From positions 11,927,832 through 11,991,831 of the forward strand of contig OZ316897.1 in NCBI GenBank assembly GCA_973895155.1: DNA of 64,000 nt. Reading direction: 5' to 3'. Each line of letters starts with the position of its first letter. Position 1 is the stretch's first letter. The position numbers were made by a program, and so were the translations under genes. The notes below the pieces were generated by a model. That model saw nothing but the letters and a program-made list of their open reading frames with translations, made no database searches and had not been told where the DNA came from. The stretch is from Marsupella aquatica (taxonomy: Eukaryota; Plantae; Marchantiophyta). This document shows positions 5,100-64,000 of the stretch, in pieces.

Positions 5100-5895
5100 A
5101 TCACCCAGTGGCCGCGCCCGCGATTGGCCCCGGCCACTAGGCCGCAGACCCGGGCCCCGTCCCCGTACGTGGCGATCGCCTGTGTTGGCTCCTCGGCTCT
5201 CGAGCCCCGGGCCCAAGGAACAGAGCCGCAGCGCAGTACTGTACCTGTACCTGTACTGTACTGTACTCCTCAGGATCCCCTTACTCGACGGATAGATCAT
5301 GACTCCGCGCCTCTCTCCCCGACCACCTGTCCCTCGCGATCCTTGAAACCCGCTCGCTTTGTTCTCTCCTCTCCTCTCCTCTCCTCTCCTCTCTCGTCTC
5401 GTCTCGTCTCAGCGAAGCTCTCCTCTGCTCGAAGCTCCGTTGCATCTCAGCGAGCTCTCGTCGAGGTCCTCTCCTCTCCTCGCCTCTTCCCTCCCCTCCT
5501 CTCCATTACGGCGCATTCACACGGAGCTCCGCATTGTGGAGAGCTTTGATTGGGTGTTTTGGAATCGACCTCGACTTTGCGGGATTGTGTTTGGGTGTAT
5601 GTTGATTTCACACGGAGTCGGGGCATTTTGTGCGGGTCTGCAGAGGGTTTGTGGATCCAGATCGAGATCGAGATCCTGTGGGAGGTCGAGAAGGGGGGCA
5701 CTCTGAGGCGGTGGTCGAGGAAGGAGGAAGGAGGAAGGCGAGACGAAAGACGAAGAGGAGGAAGGGGTTAGGGATCGGAGCGTGGATCTGTCGAGAAACG
5801 AAGGACGCAGAGGAGGGCGGGTTTAGGGATCTGATCGTCGATCGATTGATTTTTTTTGGATTGGGAATTTGGGATTGTTGTAGACAGCAGCAACC
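5100..5895 (+). promoter_or_regulatory. GC/CpG-rich promoter and 5' leader of the V-ATPase A gene
   Basis: CpG-rich block at 5100-5350, CTGTA-type repeats at 5236-5267, (CTCTC)n pyrimidine tract at 5360-5500, and an acceptor-like TTGTTGTAG 12 nt before the ATG. Confidence 0.5.
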
Positions 5896-7767
5896 ATGCC
5901 GGGACTGTATGGAGATCGGCTTGTGTCGTTCGAGGACCAGGAGGATGAGGGGGATTACGGATACGTGAGGAAGGTTTCGGGGCCCGTCGTCATCGCGGAG
6001 GGCATGGGAGGAGCTGCTATGGACGAGCTTGTGCGGGTGGGAAGCGACCATCTCATTGGGGAGATCATCAGGCTGGAGGGAGATTCTGCCACGATTCAGG
6101 TCTATGAAGAGACTGCCGGGCTCATGGTCAACGATCCGGTGCTGCGAACTCGCAAGCCGCTCTCTGCGGAGCTCGGGCCCGGGATTTTGGAGAACATCTT
6201 CGACGGAATTCAGCGCCCCCTGAGGGCTATCGCCAAGAGCTGTGGCGATGTGTACATTCCTCGAGGAGTGTCTGTTCCTGCCCTGAACAGATCCAAGGCG
6301 TGGGAGTGGGCTCCCAAAAATGTGAGTGTCGGTGATGCCGTGACCGGTGGAGACCTGTACGGTATTGTTTATGAGAACTCCCTCATCGAGCATCATATTG
6401 GGCTTCCCCCTGGCGCTCTAGGTAAGGTGACCTATATTGCTCCCCCTGGTGAGTACACGATTACGGATGATGTCCTGGAGCTGGAGTTTCAGGGGAGGAA
6501 GAAGTCTTTCACAATGTTGCAGACTTGGCCGGTGAGGACGCCTAGACCGGTTGCTGCCAAGCTTCCGGCTGATACGCCTTTGTTGACTGGGCAGAGGGTT
6601 CTGGATGCGTTGTTCCCTTCTGTGTTGGGTGGGACGTGTGCCATTCCTGGGGCCTTCGGATGTGGTAAGACTGTGATTAGTCAGGCTCTCTCCAAGTACT
6701 CCAACTCACATGGGGTTGTCTATGTGGGTTGTGGGGAGCGAGGGAATGAGATGGCTGAAGTGCTGATGGATTTCCCTCAGCTGACTATGACTCTACCTGA
6801 TGGGCGAGAGGAGTCTGTCATGAAGAGGACCACTCTTGTTGCCAACACCTCTAACATGCCCGTGGCAGCTCGTGAGGCTTCCATTTACACTGGGATTACT
6901 CTGGCCGAGTACTTCCGAGATATGGGCTACAATGTGAGCATGATGGCTGATTCAACGTCTCGATGGGCCGAGGCTCTTCGTGAGATTTCTGGTCGGTTGG
7001 CTGAGATGCCTGCAGACAGTGGATACCCAGCGTACTTGGGAGCAAGATTGGCCTCATTTTATGAACGTGCCGGAAAGGTTCAATGTCTTGGAAGCCCTAA
7101 TCGCACTGGGAGTGTCACAATTGTGGGGGCTGTGTCCCCACCTGGTGGAGACTTTTCTGATCCTGTGACTGCGGCCACACTGGGTATTGTGCAGGTGTTT
7201 TGGGGGCTTGACAAGAAGCTAGCTCAGAGGAAACATTTCCCTTCTGTGAATTGGCTTATTTCTTACTCTAAGTACACGAATGCGCTTTCCACCTTTTATG
7301 AAACCTTCGACCCGGATTTCATCAGTATCCGTACCAAGGCTCGTGAGATTCTACAGCGTGAGGATGATTTGAATGAGATCGTGCAGTTGGTGGGAAAGGA
7401 AGCTCTGGCAGAGTCAGATAAGATCACTCTCGAAGTTGCAAAGCTTCTCCGTGAAGATTATTTGGCGCAGAATGCTTTCACTCCTTATGATAAGTTCTGC
7501 CCATTCTACAAGTCGGTATGGATGATGAGGAATATAATTCATTTTGGTACTTTAGGCAATCAGGCTGTCGAGAGAGCACCTGGGTCTGAAGGGCAGAAGA
7601 TTACCTACAATGTCATCAAGCAGAGATTAGGAGATATTATCTATCGGTTGGTGTCGCAGAAGTTTGAAGATCCTGCAGAGGGGGAAGAAGTTCTGAAACG
7701 CAAATTCCAGACATTGTATGATGACATGGTAGCTACTTTCCGAAATTTAGAAGAAGAGCATAGGTAA
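5896..7767 (+). CDS. VHA-A: Vacuolar H+-ATPase catalytic subunit A, single coding exon
   Basis: Uninterrupted 623-aa ORF with P-loop GAFGCGKT and the conserved motifs [26 protein letters not shown] and [10 protein letters not shown]. Collinear over its full length with plant VHA-A as recalled. Confidence 0.97.
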
Positions 7768-55564: not shown

Positions 55565-58500
55565 TGGAGGAACACAACATAGATTTGCAAATGTTGTATT
55601 GCATCCGTAGCAATTTAACAAGGATCTGGCCACTGAGCAGATCCATGCATTCAACTCTAGCTGCATGTTGCTTAGTGGCTGGCTTGCCGATATAGATTCG
55701 GCTTGTGCATATCACTTACTTCCTCTGAGAATTGCTTGTAGGCTTAAGTAATTTCTACCAAGCTGCGAGATGAAGGTGCAACGGTGTTGGAGAGGATTTC
55801 GTGGCCACAAGCAAAAAGTGGAGGGAGCCTTTCATCAACTTCCACGGTCGGTCTCTGGACTCACGTGCCGTGTCACTGGAAGAGTAGCTGTGGTTTGGTG
55901 ATTAGTCTCTGCATGATTGTTGATTATTGGATCCTGCCAAGCAGCAACATGTTAATCTGACTTGTCTCTCAGCAAGGTGGTTAGACTTCAGTCGATGCCA
56001 TGTGCATTTTTCACTCATTTGTCAGGTCGGGGTTCCAGACCTGTCTGATTTATACTATCGGTGTTTTACACAACCAAATGCGTTGGGGGTCTAATAAGAG
56101 ATTGTCACATGGCTTCTAGTAACAAAAATAGTACTGGGGAACTAGTTTGCAGACCAAAAATATGTTCTGTGTACTTCGGCTATATTCTGTGCTTTCAATC
56201 TGAGATGGGTCTTTGTCCACAGCCATGGATTTTTCTGAAGTGGGGTAATATTTCTTCTGAATGTTCGCTCCCGCCTGGTTGCATCATATCTCTTGTGGAT
56301 TCCCCTTCTCATTTGAAGGCTGTTGAATAATTTGGTGTGTGCATCTTACTAATCGCAAATGTGCATGCATGTGCACATTACTGTAGCAGCCCCTTGTTAC
56401 AACGAAGCACTTTGCTCAGGGCGTGCATCCTCATTCTCTAAGTTGGTGGTAAGTGCGGGATGGCAGTTTGTGCTGCTATACCATCACTGCAGCAGGTACT
56501 CCTAACAGACCCCAGGTTCATGAGCTGTGGAAACGAATCTGCAAATCTGTGGGTTACTTAATTTTTAAATAGGAGATAGCTGCAAAGATGTTTTGTGTAA
56601 TTTCTCTTGATTGCATACATGTCCGCCTAGTCGCTGGCCCACTGAAAAGGAGGTCCCCTTCGCTCCAGTCTCGAAGCATTGTCTCCCAATAGCTGTCCTC
56701 TTCAATTCAATATTTGAACTCCTTAAGTGACCTGATGCTGGCCTAGATGCACATTAATGGAACCTAATTCCCTACGTGGTGTGCGGTCTGAGAATGAGCA
56801 ATTGTAAGAGCACGAGCTGGTTGGTGGGGACTATTTATGAGCAGTTGTTTCTAGTTGTGGATGGCTGGAAAAGAGGGGCAAATGTCTCTGGAGTTTTTGG
56901 TGTGCATCGGCAACTGGATCATCTGCATCGGGATTTTAACAGGCAGGTTTCTTGATGCCATAGATATCACCATTTTTCGCAGTTAGATCAGGAATTCTAC
57001 AGTGGTTTTATTCATAGCTCAATGACAAAAGTAACTCGAACTGTCAGTTGGATGACAATCTCCATTGCAGACAGCGTATTTTGAGCCATCTATGTAATGA
57101 AGACAAATTTTCAACGACTTTTGTCTCGTCTTTTGTCTGTAAAGTGATTCATGGAGAAGTATACCCTCGTGTTTCGTCCAAGTTTTCCCACCATATGCGT
57201 TGTGGACCTTTTCAAGCTGTCGCCATGTGACCCAAGGGTATTGATTGTTCAACTCTTCAGAGCAGTTTTGGAGTCGTGCAAGAATGCCGTCTTTTGAGTG
57301 AAAAGTAATGATCATGTGCAGGAATCCTTTGTGGTGGGAGTTCGAAGATTGTTAGTTTGGGCTACCTCATAGATGAAGTAAGCAACTTGGGGATCTAGCC
57401 TACGGCATGGTTCCATGTGTGTTGGCTCATTTTGATCGTACTTTTGGGCTAGAATTTTGAGACTGAGGGGCTTGCTGGTGAGTGGAGTAGTTTTGGAGTG
57501 TGAAAGTCTCTTGAAATGTCCTTCCAACTCAAGAGTTTGTAGAAATGGTGCCGTCTTTTTTTTAAAAGTTTGTTGAGATAGTTTCGTTGCAGGCGGTGTC
57601 TGAGATATTTGCATTAGCTGGCAAATCCTTCATTGTGATGCCTGTAAATTGGTGATGGCAGCAATCTTTACTTGTTTTTGTTTTGTTCTTTGCATGGTTG
57701 TATGGCTAATCTTGACGCTCTGGTAGAAGTATCCACATTTTCCTTGCCACAGGCTACGTTGAAGGTAGACAGCCTTATTCCCGATGAATTTAGTAACTCG
57801 CAAATGACGTTTCAGTCAACATCTTAGTTGCAATTGTTTTCAGACAGCAAATCGATGGATTGAACTGGCCATTCACTTTTACATTGTGTAAGCAGACTCT
57901 AAGCGGTTCGTAACATCAGGTGAGTCCTACATTCAGCTCCGCGCATACTGTGTCAGCTGATCAGTCTGGTTTACCCTATGCCTAGTTGTGTACATTCCTC
58001 TGGATTTGAATTGAGGGTTGTGGGCACTGTGTTTATTGTTGTGATCTTTGCTAGGGTAGATCTTTGCTGGAGATGGATTATATTAGATAATTTACTGTAC
58101 TTGAAAGTTGGCAAAATTCAATATGCAGAATTTTGCAAAGTGCTTTGGATGGGGATAGGTACAGTACATGGTGTTTGCTCTGACCCAAAACAAGAGCTCC
58201 GTTGGGTCGCAGATATCTGGAAAGATAGAATTGTAACTGCACATGAACAGGAGCACATCATTGTAAGTAATCACGCAGAGAACATTGCTCTGAGAAAGTA
58301 CCTTCGGGGAAGAAAGCTTTAAAGCTCTAACTGTGCGGGCTTAAATGTTTTTAGCAATCAAGGAAATAAATATTGAATCTGTTGATGACATTGCAATATA
58401 CCTGGTCTAAGAGACTTTACGGAAAACCTAAGAGGATCCGCGTTCTCAAGTTTTAGGTGAATTCGGCTGGCATTGTCGTAACACCCGCAAATTTCAAAAC

Positions 58501-61047
58501 GTGAAGGCTTCAGTAGTGTAGAGACTTTTCAGGATAAGTTTTGATTTGACAATGCCGATCATGTGTTTGCAATTGTGGGCATGTTTAGCCTATGGAGGGA
58601 CACATTAATAGCTTGCTAAGTTTTTGGTCATTGCACACTGTACGTGTTTCCGTTGCACTTTTAAAGAGAGACCCGTTTTGTGGCTGTCAAACTTAACCAG
58701 GTAAGTGTTTCGAAACAGTGACTACCCATTGTCTGAGATAATTGTCTGGACAGTCCCTCCAAGCACAATGTATGTGTTCCAGGTTGTAAGGAACGTACGT
58801 TGGTATATGCCAAACACTGGACAAATAACATGTTCTGGCCGCATTCGGTCCGCATTTGGTCGCCAGGCTGACATAATGTACCCAAGTTGTAAAAAGTTCA
58901 ATATGTCTGAGATTTTGCGACGACCATATACTTGAAACTGACCGGGCTGTTGGAGTGAGATTCATGTCCTTGGAGGAGCTACCGATTCCAGCATTTCAGT
59001 TCTTGTATTTTGCTCCTTTTCGGCAAGTAACAAACTTTGAAGCTGATTCCCTCGTCTACGTTTTGCGTCTCCTGTGACCTCGACTGTTGCATAGGTTTAG
59101 CGTGTATTCAGGTCTCAACTCTAAAGATATTTGGAAAGGGTAGGTTACGACATTCTGTTGGATTTCGTCTTGGGCCACACCAATGTAGTTTCCATCCTGA
59201 AATTAGACCTCGACCTCTTTGCCCTTATTATTAAACTGTTAACTTAGAAGCTCGTTCTGTTGCAGTTGGACAAAATAGCCGCAAATTCATAACGGTTTGT
59301 ATTTCTGAAATTGGTGGCAAACAATGTGCATGAGAATTTTATAGATTGTCGCAAAGCAATAGAAAGTCTGCACTGTGTTAAGTAAATATCCCAAGAAGTG
59401 TATATATTTATCACGCAGATTTTGCCAGCATTAAAACTGTGCAGTCACTGGGAAGAGTTTTGGAACAAAACAATTTCGTTGAAGGCAAGAGTTCTCTGGT
59501 TCTACGACTATGGGGCGAAGGCTTTCTGTACCTGATTAGGAGTATGATGAACGAGATTAGTACTAGTCCAGAACAGGCTGTTAGAGTGTGCCCTTCCTAC
59601 TGTAGATGAATTTGACTTATACTTAAAAATCTTTCAGAAAACCTTGCAGTTTTTTGTGATTTCAGAGCACGCTGGCATCTGGTGCTCGAAAATGTGATTA
59701 CTACCAGGAGAAACGGACGGTATCTGGGGTTTGGTTCTACACTTTTTGACTTATTCTTATCTCAGACATTTCCGTTACGCCGAAATGGTACATGGGATTT
59801 TTGCTGAATCATGGTGGTGCGTCTTGTTATTTTCCACCATGTCCTGTTTACGCGTTTCATGCTCATATGTGATTGATCATGGTCTTCTCTTATCATGGCC
59901 TTCTCTCACTGTTGTCACAATTCCCTCACTTTCCATTTCACACCTAAAGCCACCTGAATGTTCCCCGCACAAATTTCAACTGGTCTTCTCTAGGATCGCG
60001 TGTAGATCATTTCCAATCGTCGCTTCCAATCATGGTGGTGCGTCTTGTATATCCAATACTGTAGGCCAATATATTTTACTCGGTGTTGTAATTTTTTTGC
60101 AATAATCTAATCTATATTCAATAGACATCAACATTATCTGAATTGACTTGGTGGTGAAGGTGCGGCCAGCAGTGAGCTAGCATTGATGTGATTGTGATAT
60201 ATCACAAAATTCATTGTGTCATTTTGATTTTCATTTAATGTGAATTTTGATATTTGTTTGATGTCATCCTTCTCATACCCATCAATTATGTTCACTTACA
60301 ATATTGAATATACAATCACATTGGAATTAAACATATATACATTAACAAACGGCAATATCCAAAGCACTTGTTAATTTGGTATATATATATATATATTTAT
60401 TTATTTATTTATTACATTTACAAATATAGCTATCAAATGGATGTAAAACTCAGTTTCATGATGATTATAGTGAACTATCCAAATGCCTCTGTTGAACAAC
60501 ATGAAATTTTGTATTATATGATATTAGATATAGTTCAAATTCTTTGTGTAAATGTGCTTGGATCAAGTTTAGCATGAACCAAAATCTGTCAATAATCCGA
60601 GCTATAGTGGGCCTGTGCTTCCAATAGACAAGCAGCTTGGACCCTGCGCTCATACAGCCTGGATGTAATGGTCAAACATTTGGCATAACCTTCACTTGTT
60701 GGAGGGGCCAGTGTAATTGAAACTAATTTTTGTTTTAAATTCTTGAACGTTTGAAACTCCATCCGCCATTTTGGGTCATTTAGATGTCTATTGAATGTAA
60801 CTTGGATTAGTATTCACTCCCTTCATAGTGTCGGATGACCAGGTTTCTTAGATCTGTCACTTCTTGTATGTGAAACATAGAAGAAGGATCTAGTGTATGG
60901 AAGTTCAAATTGAAAAATGTCATGTATATATATGATTGGCTTAAAGCCACTTATTTTAAAGCTGACATTAAGTGCAGCTAAAACTAAACAAAGCTCTGAT
61001 TGGCCAAAAATACAGTAGCAAAGTGGGGGAGTCCATCCCTCATCTTC

Positions 61048-61331
61048 CATCCCTCATCTTCCATCTCCTCATTTTTATCTCCTTGTTTATCATCACAACC
61101 GAGTGTGTCCTTACTCTCCTACCAGAAGTGACTTACACATCTTTCATCCCTCATCTTCCATCTCCTCATTTTTATCTCCTTGTTTATCATCACAACCGAG
61201 TGTGTCCTTACTCTCCTACCAGAAGTGACTTACACATCTTTCATCCCTCATCTTCCATCTCCTCATTTTTATCTCCTTGTTTATCATCACAACCGAGTGT
61301 TTCCTTACTCTCCTACCAGAAGTGACTTACA
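61048..61331. repeat. 97-bp near-perfect tandem repeat, about 3 copies
   Basis: CATCCCTCATCTTCCATCTCCTC...AGAAGTGACTTACA at 61048, 61145 and 61242. Confidence 0.92.
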
Positions 61332-61483
61332 AGTGATGGAAAGGGGTTTTAATTTTTTCGTTGTAATTATTTGCCAAGAGTCAAGGGTCCAGATTTGACC
61401 ATACAGAAATCTAGCAGTCATAATGTGACCATACAAACCTTTTGCTAAGCAAAGGTTTCTCAATGCACCATAGGTATCACCTG

Positions 61484-61700
61484 CCCAAAATACGAAAAGA
61501 AACCCCCATTCCTTCCCGGCCCTCATTTCTGTCCGTCAATGGCTCACTCCCATATTGGCCCTCTTCCGCTTGGCGCCACGTGCTTTTCCACCCTTGTTTC
61601 CATCCGTTAAGGGCAGTGGGGTTTTGTTAATGGCTCTCGGCTCACCAGAGCTTGCCACGTATGTCACTTTATACTTCATTATTTGGGACCGTATTTTGGG
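61484..61700. mobile_element. Possible degenerate MITE
   Basis: 11-bp inverted repeat CCCAAAATACG (61484) / CGTATTTTGGG (61690) enclosing GCCACGT and CCGTYAA motifs. No target-site duplication identified. Confidence 0.3.
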
Positions 61701-62006
61701 TGTATTTGTATGCATGCTCGTTTATTGGTACAGCTTGCAGTTTTTTCAAAAACTGAAAATCTTTCATAGGGAGAAATCCCGCGGAGGAGATAAAAATTTA
61801 TTCATACGTAAAAACGATTTACAATTGAATGACTCAAATCAAGTCTAAATCATATGAATGTTTTGGACACCAATGAATGTCCGCTAGCTGTGTGTAATAG
61901 TAAGAATATCTGCTAGCTGTAATAGTAAGATTGTCCACTAACCGTTCTCATCTATAATCTATAGTATCTATAGTCTATATCTACAATCTATATCTACTAG
62001 ATTGGC

Positions 62007-63992
62007 CTAAGGTATTGCCAAGCCTGATGCGCCTCCATCTCCGCCTCCTCCAGGTCCTCCACCATGTGGGCCAAAATTAAGGCTGAAGGTACAACCATTC
62101 ATCGTGCAATTGGTCAAGGCTTTAATCTTATCAAACACAGTGTTGGTGACAGGGTTAATAACAGTCAGACTTGGCCGAGGAGCCATGCCCCTAAATCCAG
62201 GTTGAGAACTCAATCCATCCCAATCAAGAGACTCCAAGAAAAACTTAAAGTCATTAAACTGTGGCTCTGAAGAAAAATGTGGCTCTGAAGAAAAATGCAA
62301 AGGAACATTGGAGTCTAGCTCCTGTAGGGACGCGTCCACAGTCTGAGCCTGAACCTCAGCTCGAGTAACAACCTCTGCCTCTGTTCGCACCACCTCCTCA
62401 TTGGACTGAACTACTTGCACTGGGACGCTTAAGTCAGCAGACTCGATCCTAGACGGCAAGCTTGATTCAGCAGACTCGGACACTACACACGTACACCACA
62501 AAGATAACTCATTATTCCATACAAGATAACAAGTTAAAGAGTCATACAAAACTTTCCAAGAAACACATAACTCATTTAGTACCTTCAGATAGTGCTTCAT
62601 CTTTTGATCTCTTTACCTGTGGTTCATCCACAAAAGCAGCAAGAGCCTCCACTAGTTCTTCGCATGTACCACCATCAATGAGCACTCGCTTCCCCTTCGT
62701 TGTTTCCAAACTCATCGTTGAAGAGTAAGGAGTGCCGTCAGTGGCAGATCTCTCTGCAGCACGTACTTGAGCCTCTGAACTGCGATTGTATCTTTCATAA
62801 GCACCTTCACTCTTGTGGCCAGAAATTTTCATACCAACCTTGGTGGGACACCCTCGGCCCCCATTCGTGAGATACAAGTCGTCCGTCCAGTTTTATTAGA
62901 GACACCTTCAGTACCAAGGCCAGCCTCTTGGTGCAGAACTTTTAAACAAGAGCCGAGGGTTTTCTCACCAAGTCTCGACGTCGAGTACCATGCATGCGTC
63001 CTGGGGTGGTCGATGCATTGGTAAAACAGAAAGGTGGCACTCACTGGAAGATGGTGGATCAAGCTCCTCAATGTCTCGACCACATCCAAGTCATAGTTAA
63101 TCACAGCCGGCCTGAAGTGTTCTTCTTGATATCGATCCATACTTATTCTATAGTTCTTACTAAACCTCTCGTCGTACTTAACAAAGTTACCATGCACATC
63201 AGTTCCACAAATAAAGTCACACTTCATTAGATTATACAGCTCCTTACCACCACAAATGCAAAACCAGTTTAGTAAAAAGAAAATTGCCCTTCGCTGCAGG
63301 CCTCGCGAATGTGAAATTGAGGTGCTTGAATGAGCCAAAATAGTGGCTTCATCAGCGAATGTGATTACAGAAGCTTTCTTTCGAGGTAAGTTAGCCCCTG
63401 CATTCCTCGACCGCTCCATTGCCAGCACACATGCAATAGCTACCGGCTTGAAAAGTGGAGAAGACCGCATGTCAAAAACTACCTCTTCCTTACCTGATAC
63501 AACGATGCGCTTCTCTTGCTTCTTCCTCAATATATGGTGAAATGCACGGTAAAGGCCCATCAAGGTTTGGGATGGATAGACCTTACCATCCTTCTTGCAG
63601 ACCTGCTCAAAGAACTTGGTCAAAAGCAACACACAGTCGCGGCCAGACATATCCTCGAGCGGAATGGCAGTGTTCCATGACTTAAACTCACGGAACTTGT
63701 CAAGGCGGTTCTTTGCCCACTGATCAACGGCTGCGCTTGGGTTGCTCCCACCCTCGGCAAGGGTACATTGGAACTGCGCATCTTCAGGTAGAAACTCACA
63801 TGATGTGCCATTCGGGAGATTAACTGTTAGATGCTGCGGTACCAACGATTCAAGAAATATATCGGGGTCGCCATTCAGGTTCTGAATTTCAGACTCTAAA
63901 CAGGAAAACGAATCTGCACCGGATGTATTTTCGATCAAAGGCTCAGATGCAGTTTCGCTCGAGTCTGCAGCAGTCGTTGTCATTATTGACAT
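62007..63992 (-). mobile_element. Crypton-like tyrosine recombinase gene (DUF3504-type), frameshifted, with one intron
   Basis: N-terminal WAKN..F...LEDM...L.KFF.QV(C)KKDG.VYP..TL, then GLQRRAIF, FCI(C)GGKE..NL, ERFSKN, WYS..RLG..TL, SNKTGR and ISGHKS..AYERY. One-base deletion near 62845. GT-AG intron 62582-62483. C-terminal NCTMNGCTFSLNF. Confidence 0.8.
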
Positions 63993-64000
63993 CCCAAGGC

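Follow-up and report, generated by a model that had tools for sequence, protein, structure and literature searches.

At the right end of the window (the whole 64,000-nucleotide stretch of Marsupella aquatica DNA analysed here) lie the pieces of a predicted tyrosine recombinase (YR) gene, and they raise the question of whether this liverwort gene belongs to a transposon, and of what type, or to the host. The gene is laid out as follows.

62829–63998, 62572–62892 and 62007–62612, reverse strand: raw recombinase pieces in the list of open reading frames
62841..63998, reverse strand: coding piece 1, which encodes the core-binding and the greater part of the catalytic domain and is still open where the window ends
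62583..62840, reverse strand: coding piece 2, bearing the catalytic His and Tyr
62483..62582, reverse strand: predicted intron, 100 nt, GT–AG, frame-keeping, 32% GC
62007..62482, reverse strand: last exon, with a low-complexity tail and the family motifs LDW and INPV..NC..CT

The initial annotation had joined the three pieces into one protein through a frameshift and a 100-nt GT–AG intron, and reading the break near 62840 as X and removing 62582–62483 does give a stop-free protein of 631 residues, in which all of the motifs then quoted (ICGGKE, ERFSKN, NKTGR, SGH, AYERY, KKDG.Y and NC..NGCTF) are found. GC content is 32% in the intron as against 46–49% in the exons, and the last exon has motifs common to the relatives (E of 1.6e-6 to P0138). 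The intron counts as inferred, since no public RNA runs with this stretch are listed. A stronger-looking donor 34 nt upstream was set aside because with the same acceptor it would shift the frame. The first open reading frame is open at the window edge, its first residues being LGMS at 63998; relatives open with M..P.FSLG ahead of LGMS, so the true start probably lies a few codons past 64000. No second copy of the gene was found within the 64-kb window.

Searches with the window's own pieces identify no family. The DUF3504 or phage-integrase match expected for such a protein did not appear in Pfam, which gave only two irrelevant weak matches, and PDB sequence searches returned no match for the window pieces or P0001 and no recombinase for a plant-only profile. 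The assignment therefore rests on relatives. Seven close relatives, two of them from Calypogeia fissa, are 52–78% identical to coding piece 1 (among 2359 candidates). DUF3504 is present weakly in five of the seven, under the curated cut-off (best 4.4e-5), and Phage_integrase weakly in three, also below cut-off; P0074 alone among family members passes the DUF3504 (PF12012) cut-off, with 31.7 versus 29.7 bits. A profile built on the seven relatives matches 1840 proteins at E≤1e-3. DUF3504 is above cut-off in 16 of the 36 profile matches scanned, and QRICH1 in 15; the DUF3504-bearing matches align over 300 positions at 1e-18 to 1e-23. The top three Atlas clusters are DUF3504/integrase (0.98). PDB matches to QRICH1 and XerA were discounted, as the query profile contained canonical DUF3504 rows and was hence not independent.

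The predicted fold of the family is that of Cre and the integrases, with a core-binding and a catalytic domain, as modelled for relative P0007, which is 58% identical to the window core. The model (pLDDT 77; built on 59 aligned rows, including 14 canonical DUF3504 proteins that may help the fold along) matches Cre with a Foldseek E of 4.4e-8, and Cre/Tre with a Z score of 19.9 and an rmsd of 3.0–3.2 over 294–297 residues. Searches of JGI metagenomes, IMG/VR, prokaryote genomes and phages, which reach close relatives only, gave no related loci.

A tree was built from 48 cores picked for length, with short fragments excluded, and rooted on the canonical set; its rows include no CryptonF, CryptonS, CryptonI, DIRS, Starship or labelled Glomhopper sequences. 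The 33 plant-like rows, so labelled mostly by kinship, are split from the 15 canonical rows by a branch with SH-aLRT 100, and the window sequence groups with P0004 and a C. fissa protein. Canonical DUF3504 proteins are only 23–26% identical to the plant family; transposon copies from liverwort and fern are 40–42% identical to one another, and the named relatives come from one liverwort and two ferns. The window copy belongs to a genuine branch of Crypton-like recombinases in land plants, one that has been little described and is a possible member of CryptonA proper.

The catalytic positions and lesions of the window copy, all on the reverse strand, were placed by alignment to relatives and by comparison with contigs from public sequencing runs.

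63252..63254, reverse strand: first catalytic position, a Cys codon (TGT); from alignment to relatives and run contigs
63156..63158, reverse strand: catalytic Lys (RFSKN), by alignment
62883..62894, reverse strand: K-x-x-R motif NKTGR, with Lys where the HxxR of canonical DUF3504 proteins and Cre has His
62839..62840, reverse strand: one-base deletion that breaks the frame; from run contigs
62815–62817, reverse strand: catalytic His, by alignment
62788–62790, reverse strand: catalytic Tyr, by alignment

The ICGGKE motif had been taken for the site of the first catalytic Arg. The motif is there, but the Arg is not: the position holds Cys, as against Arg in 56 of 71 related rows, so the first catalytic residue is gone from the window copy. 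Contigs of all four public runs have the letter of an Arg codon at 63254, and those of three of the four have one more base behind 62839 (the fourth run is without cover there), which puts coding pieces 1 and 2 in one frame. The R-H-R-Y tetrad is incomplete in the window copy, its first Arg being Cys, its His being Lys and its frame broken. With a frameshift and the loss of the catalytic Arg, the copy is dead and is itself an ordinary pseudogene.

Counted over all aligned rows, the family keeps R in 56/71, K in 65/72, R in 65/72, H in 57/59 and Y in 51/54. At the place of the HxxR His it has Lys in 65 of 72 rows, Arg in five and never His; the canonical group, in which P0154 is counted after a check of its placement, has His in 16 of 17. 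Lys at this place also occurs in topoisomerase IB and in protelomerases. Where relatives have lost the first Arg, its place is most often taken by Gln, Cys, His or Trp, which would fit C-to-T decay of CGN codons. Of the 22 differences listed for the coding pieces, a subset of more than 500 rows, 10 are silent and 12 residue-changing, and they give no clear signal of selection.

The window stretch is found in five public runs, four of which share 60–79% of its words. In run X4 the flanking contig is identical to the window over 56001–60370 at a depth of 13.6, and depth over 61341–64000 is 2.2–8.8 times that of the flank, summed contig depth not being equal to copy number. Depth steps up 5.0–7.0-fold at about 61370 in X2, X3 and X4, and contigs have loose ends at 61386–61387 in three of four runs, whose letters have TTATTTGCCAA-like sequence in common before they diverge. 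Depth step and loose ends place one end of the element at about 61365–61387, so that the element repeat stops about 640 bp past the recombinase stop codon. Many run contigs lie at 80–99% identity to the element.

61365..62006, no strand assigned: non-coding 3' arm of the element, with the repeat boundary at about 61365–61387; from depth step and loose ends
61484–61494 and 61690–61700, no strand assigned: 11-bp perfect inverted pair bordering the two deepest blocks

The joint between flank and element is bridged without differences in X1–X4 (four runs from two studies) and is therefore not a mis-join; a second, diverged haplotype also bridges it in X2 and X3, so it does not mark a fresh insertion. 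Over 60700–61422 runs X2 and X3 show two haplotypes, of which one matches the window exactly and the other differs by about 5%; both run across the element end. No empty site was seen at the joint among contigs of X1–X4. A wider profile gave 16 matches, all from Adiantum, of which nine are from A. capillus-veneris on seven chromosome-scale contigs; four A. capillus-veneris copies on four contigs are 95–98% identical and another pair 95%, which fits recent dispersal. Raised depth, diverged contigs and dispersed Adiantum relatives together give the picture of an interspersed, multi-copy sequence. The initial reading of the locus as a decayed copy of a multi-copy tyrosine recombinase related to Cryptons and DUF3504 is borne out by the lesions, the repeat depth and the relatives in liverworts and ferns. 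It also predicted intact relatives in the genome; less damaged copies do occur in data from the same species, although repair is shown at two positions only.

Within the 3' arm, the 11-bp inverted pair is a possible, weak candidate for recombinase-binding sites and no more than a lead (an equal length was reached by 10 of 300 shuffles). At 61659–61701/61707 other copies repeat a 43–49 bp unit in tandem (joints go back 43 and 49), a possible candidate for a subterminal binding array. On neither strand is the predicted folding of 61350–61720 better than that of shuffled sequence (z of −0.60 and −0.90). About 35 bp outside the element end are three 97-bp tandem copies (61041–61331) that are 98–99% alike, of which an X3 contig skips 222 bases, and at 60272–60342 there is a short separate repeat with about 14 times flank depth in X4, loose ends at 60281 and 60342, and no match to the 3' arm. 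The preceding 4 kb or so (56000–60270) is at single-copy depth with short frames only and no Pfam match, and is perhaps an old decayed repeat. The earlier observation that reverse transcriptase (RT), RNase H and gag sequences are absent downstream of the recombinase holds, with no match for any of the 21 open reading frame pieces tested between 56049 and 61845. Elsewhere the window has plant-type host genes for V-ATPase subunit A, an L-type lectin receptor kinase and a HAK potassium transporter, as well as an MFS transporter and a cyclin-like piece. The V-ATPase subunit A gene (5884–7767, forward strand) is a single frame of 627 codons in which all four Pfam domains are found; as VHA-A genes of plants are usually split by many introns, this one is possibly a retrocopy.

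We consider it highly probable that the locus is a dead copy of a multi-copy gene for a predicted Cre-like recombinase, likely the sole gene of a Crypton-type transposon of liverworts and ferns. The gene anatomy, the two lesions, the repetitive state, the one boundary, the dispersal in ferns and the Cre-like model are the observed parts of this reading. By analogy with Cre and Cryptons (parts of PMC3212892 and PMC9977147), intact copies would make a recombinase with an R-K-K-R-H-Y set, Lys replacing the usual His, that would bind both element ends and cut the strand pairs one at a time through a 3'-phosphotyrosine; the element would leave as a circle, which would then recombine with a short matching target at another site. 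The window copy would no longer be capable of this, its inactivation probably being due in part to C-to-T decay. In a vascular-plant ancestor, a non-functional derivative of this recombinase was likely joined to the end of a PAXX head and has since been retained by the host as a gene of its own.

Several other origins can be weighed against the dead Crypton-type copy. The recombinase could be the last gene of a DIRS/Ngaro-like retrotransposon, with gag and RT beyond 64000, which we regard as improbable. In DIRS elements the YR does come after gag and RT, the upstream side of the gene lies beyond the window, and two Adiantum nelumboides models join the recombinase to an RT (P0055) or to gag (P0160, PF03732). 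The nearest named kin, however, are DUF3504/CryptonA proteins whose elements encode a YR alone (PMC3212892, in part), the gene is likely intron-bearing, and the fern models have unrelated partners (PPR twice, O-fucosyltransferase, RT placed after the YR, and gag; models P0014, P0162, P0158, P0055 and P0160), a pattern likely due to chimeric gene calling where copies have inserted. Nor does anything point to the larger cargo-carrying element that the initial annotation had floated. A Starship-like element has a DUF3435 captain followed by cargo, and weak DUF3435 scores are seen in two canonical outgroup proteins (E of 0.001–0.004); the window pieces and close relatives have no DUF3435 match, the repeat stops some 640 bp past the stop codon, and the next 5 kb are at single-copy depth except for short repeats, which leaves a Starship-like leader gene a very improbable reading.

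A probability just as low attaches to a pseudogene of a small, domesticated and immobile host gene family. The insertion is on two haplotypes of organism B and also in organism A, and so is not recent here, and this recombinase family has likely been domesticated at least once; yet its relatives often lose the catalytic Arg to Gln, Cys, His or Trp, near-identical copies are scattered across fern chromosomes, and the repeat has a sharp non-coding boundary. Glomeromycota, which are rich in DUF3504 Cryptons and associate with bryophytes (PMC13465315, in part), could in principle have contributed the segment as a contaminant (e.g. a mycorrhizal fungus with Glomhoppers), or it could be a mis-join. 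Neither is credible to any real degree, as the joint to single-copy flank is bridged in four runs, the named close relatives are all plant proteins on chromosome-scale contigs, and canonical DUF3504 proteins are only 23–26% identical.

Outside the window, a search with P0047 (7993 candidates) revealed 13 proteins of 534–749 residues that combine a predicted PAXX-fold head with a catalytically dead piece of the recombinase (P0047, P0065, P0041, P0168, P0169, P0170, P0076, P0163–P0167 and P0171). Six have named species, namely Selaginella moellendorffii (two proteins), Diphasiastrum complanatum, Adiantum capillus-veneris, Taxus chinensis and Cryptomeria japonica, and among the 7993 candidates searched none is named from an angiosperm or a bryophyte. 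Against the transposon profile, their C-terminal domain gives an alignment of 296 columns (probability 100, E of 4e-50). The first Arg is absent in 13 of 13, and the YR part ends ahead of the KxxR, His and Tyr motifs. Atlas places the N-terminal part as XRCC4/PAXX-like. In a model of P0065 (mean pLDDT 55, about 80 in the head), the head, i.e. the first 150 residues, matches Arabidopsis PAXX (PDB 8p26) with an E of 1.3e-7, a Z score of 19.4 and an rmsd of 2.1 over 145 residues, the next best Z being 11.2. Residues 287–410 match QRICH1 (9hjt; Z 10.3) and the N-terminal domain of Cre (Z 9–10).

The YR part of the fusions is 51–66% identical (10 of 10 pairs), versus 26–54% for the head and 16–35% for the linker, and in the fusion subtree the lycophytes lie outside, with fern and conifer groups at 99–100. 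The constancy of the YR part and the host-like subtree are in keeping with a gene passed down vertically, and under constraint, ever since lycophytes diverged some 400 million years ago. A dead YR, conservation in distant hosts and a gene tree that follows the host tree are thus found together, and the fusion is likely an ancient domestication of a Crypton recombinase in plants. Nesting of the fusions inside the transposon group proved insecure: a tree that holds the 23 transposon-like rows together is not rejected (p-AU 0.55) and has a slightly higher likelihood. In our reading, the dimeric PAXX head would bear two putative DNA-clamping domains that help to hold or recognise DNA at breaks.

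If correct, the plant branch, missed by standard profiles, would mean one more transposon group for those who annotate bryophyte and fern genomes, a source of site-specific recombinases that are adapted to plants and have an unusual active site, and material for testing the proposed excision circle. The fusion, if true, would be an ancient case of a transposon gene turned host gene within the central DNA-repair machinery of vascular plants, and the first plant case of Crypton domestication, parallel to ZMYM/QRICH1 in animals; going by paper titles, ZMYM2 and ZMYM3, both animal DUF3504 genes, are reportedly tied to double-strand-break repair. We lean, by a modest degree, towards the broader proposition that land plants own an old, recently mobile Crypton lineage with a Lys-for-His site, and that a fusion of a disabled copy to PAXX, a scaffold of DNA end joining, was made before the lycophyte split and has been retained as a repair factor that binds DNA.

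Cryptons are listed from fungi, animals and stramenopiles (PMC3212892, in part) and from a green alga (PMC9977147, in part). No description of land-plant Cryptons was found in the open literature, as distinct from Repbase, Dfam, subscription journals and supplements. Like the animal CryptonA/DUF3504 Cryptons as described in parts of PMC3212892, the window family has a single YR with a QRICH1-type core-binding and a DUF3504-type catalytic part, no extra C-terminal domain, a short N-C-rich tail motif, and no long terminal repeats at the one element end tested. Unlike CryptonA, it is 23–26% identical to canonical proteins and on a separate branch (SH-aLRT 100), has Lys for the HxxR His (65 of 72 rows, versus His in 16 of 17 canonical rows), falls mostly below the DUF3504 cut-off, and is hosted by land plants, of which Table 1 of PMC3212892 has none. 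The Glomhoppers, CryptonA elements of Glomeromycota, share the DUF3504-type YR and occur mostly as truncated copies in intron-bearing and intronless forms; unlike the window family they are fungal and are described as retaining the catalytic His and Tyr, and PMC13465315 names no plant members, with liverwort, Marchantia, Viridiplantae and Streptophyta all absent from it. CryptonF-1_cRei of Chlamydomonas is likewise a Crypton of the green lineage and a precedent for the mechanism, its terminal CACCG recombining with a CAYCG target and its excision being clean; unlike the window family, beside which it is set by description, it belongs to the CryptonF group and to an alga (parts of PMC9977147).

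For the PAXX–recombinase fusion no description was found in the open literature, supplements lying outside that scope; in the main text of bioRxiv 10.1101/2023.05.26.542399, 'recombinase', moss, fern, gymnosperm and Marchantia are absent. Unlike the plant PAXX of that study (in part), the fusion carries an extra YR-derived domain and has 534–749 residues. Like ZMYM2/3/4, QRICH1, KCTD1 and KIAA1958 (PMC3212892, in part), it has a host domain followed by a retained but dead Crypton YR; unlike these animal DUF3504 genes, it is found in plants, derives from another Crypton branch, has a PAXX-fold partner, and has a YR truncated ahead of the HxxR, His and Tyr motifs.
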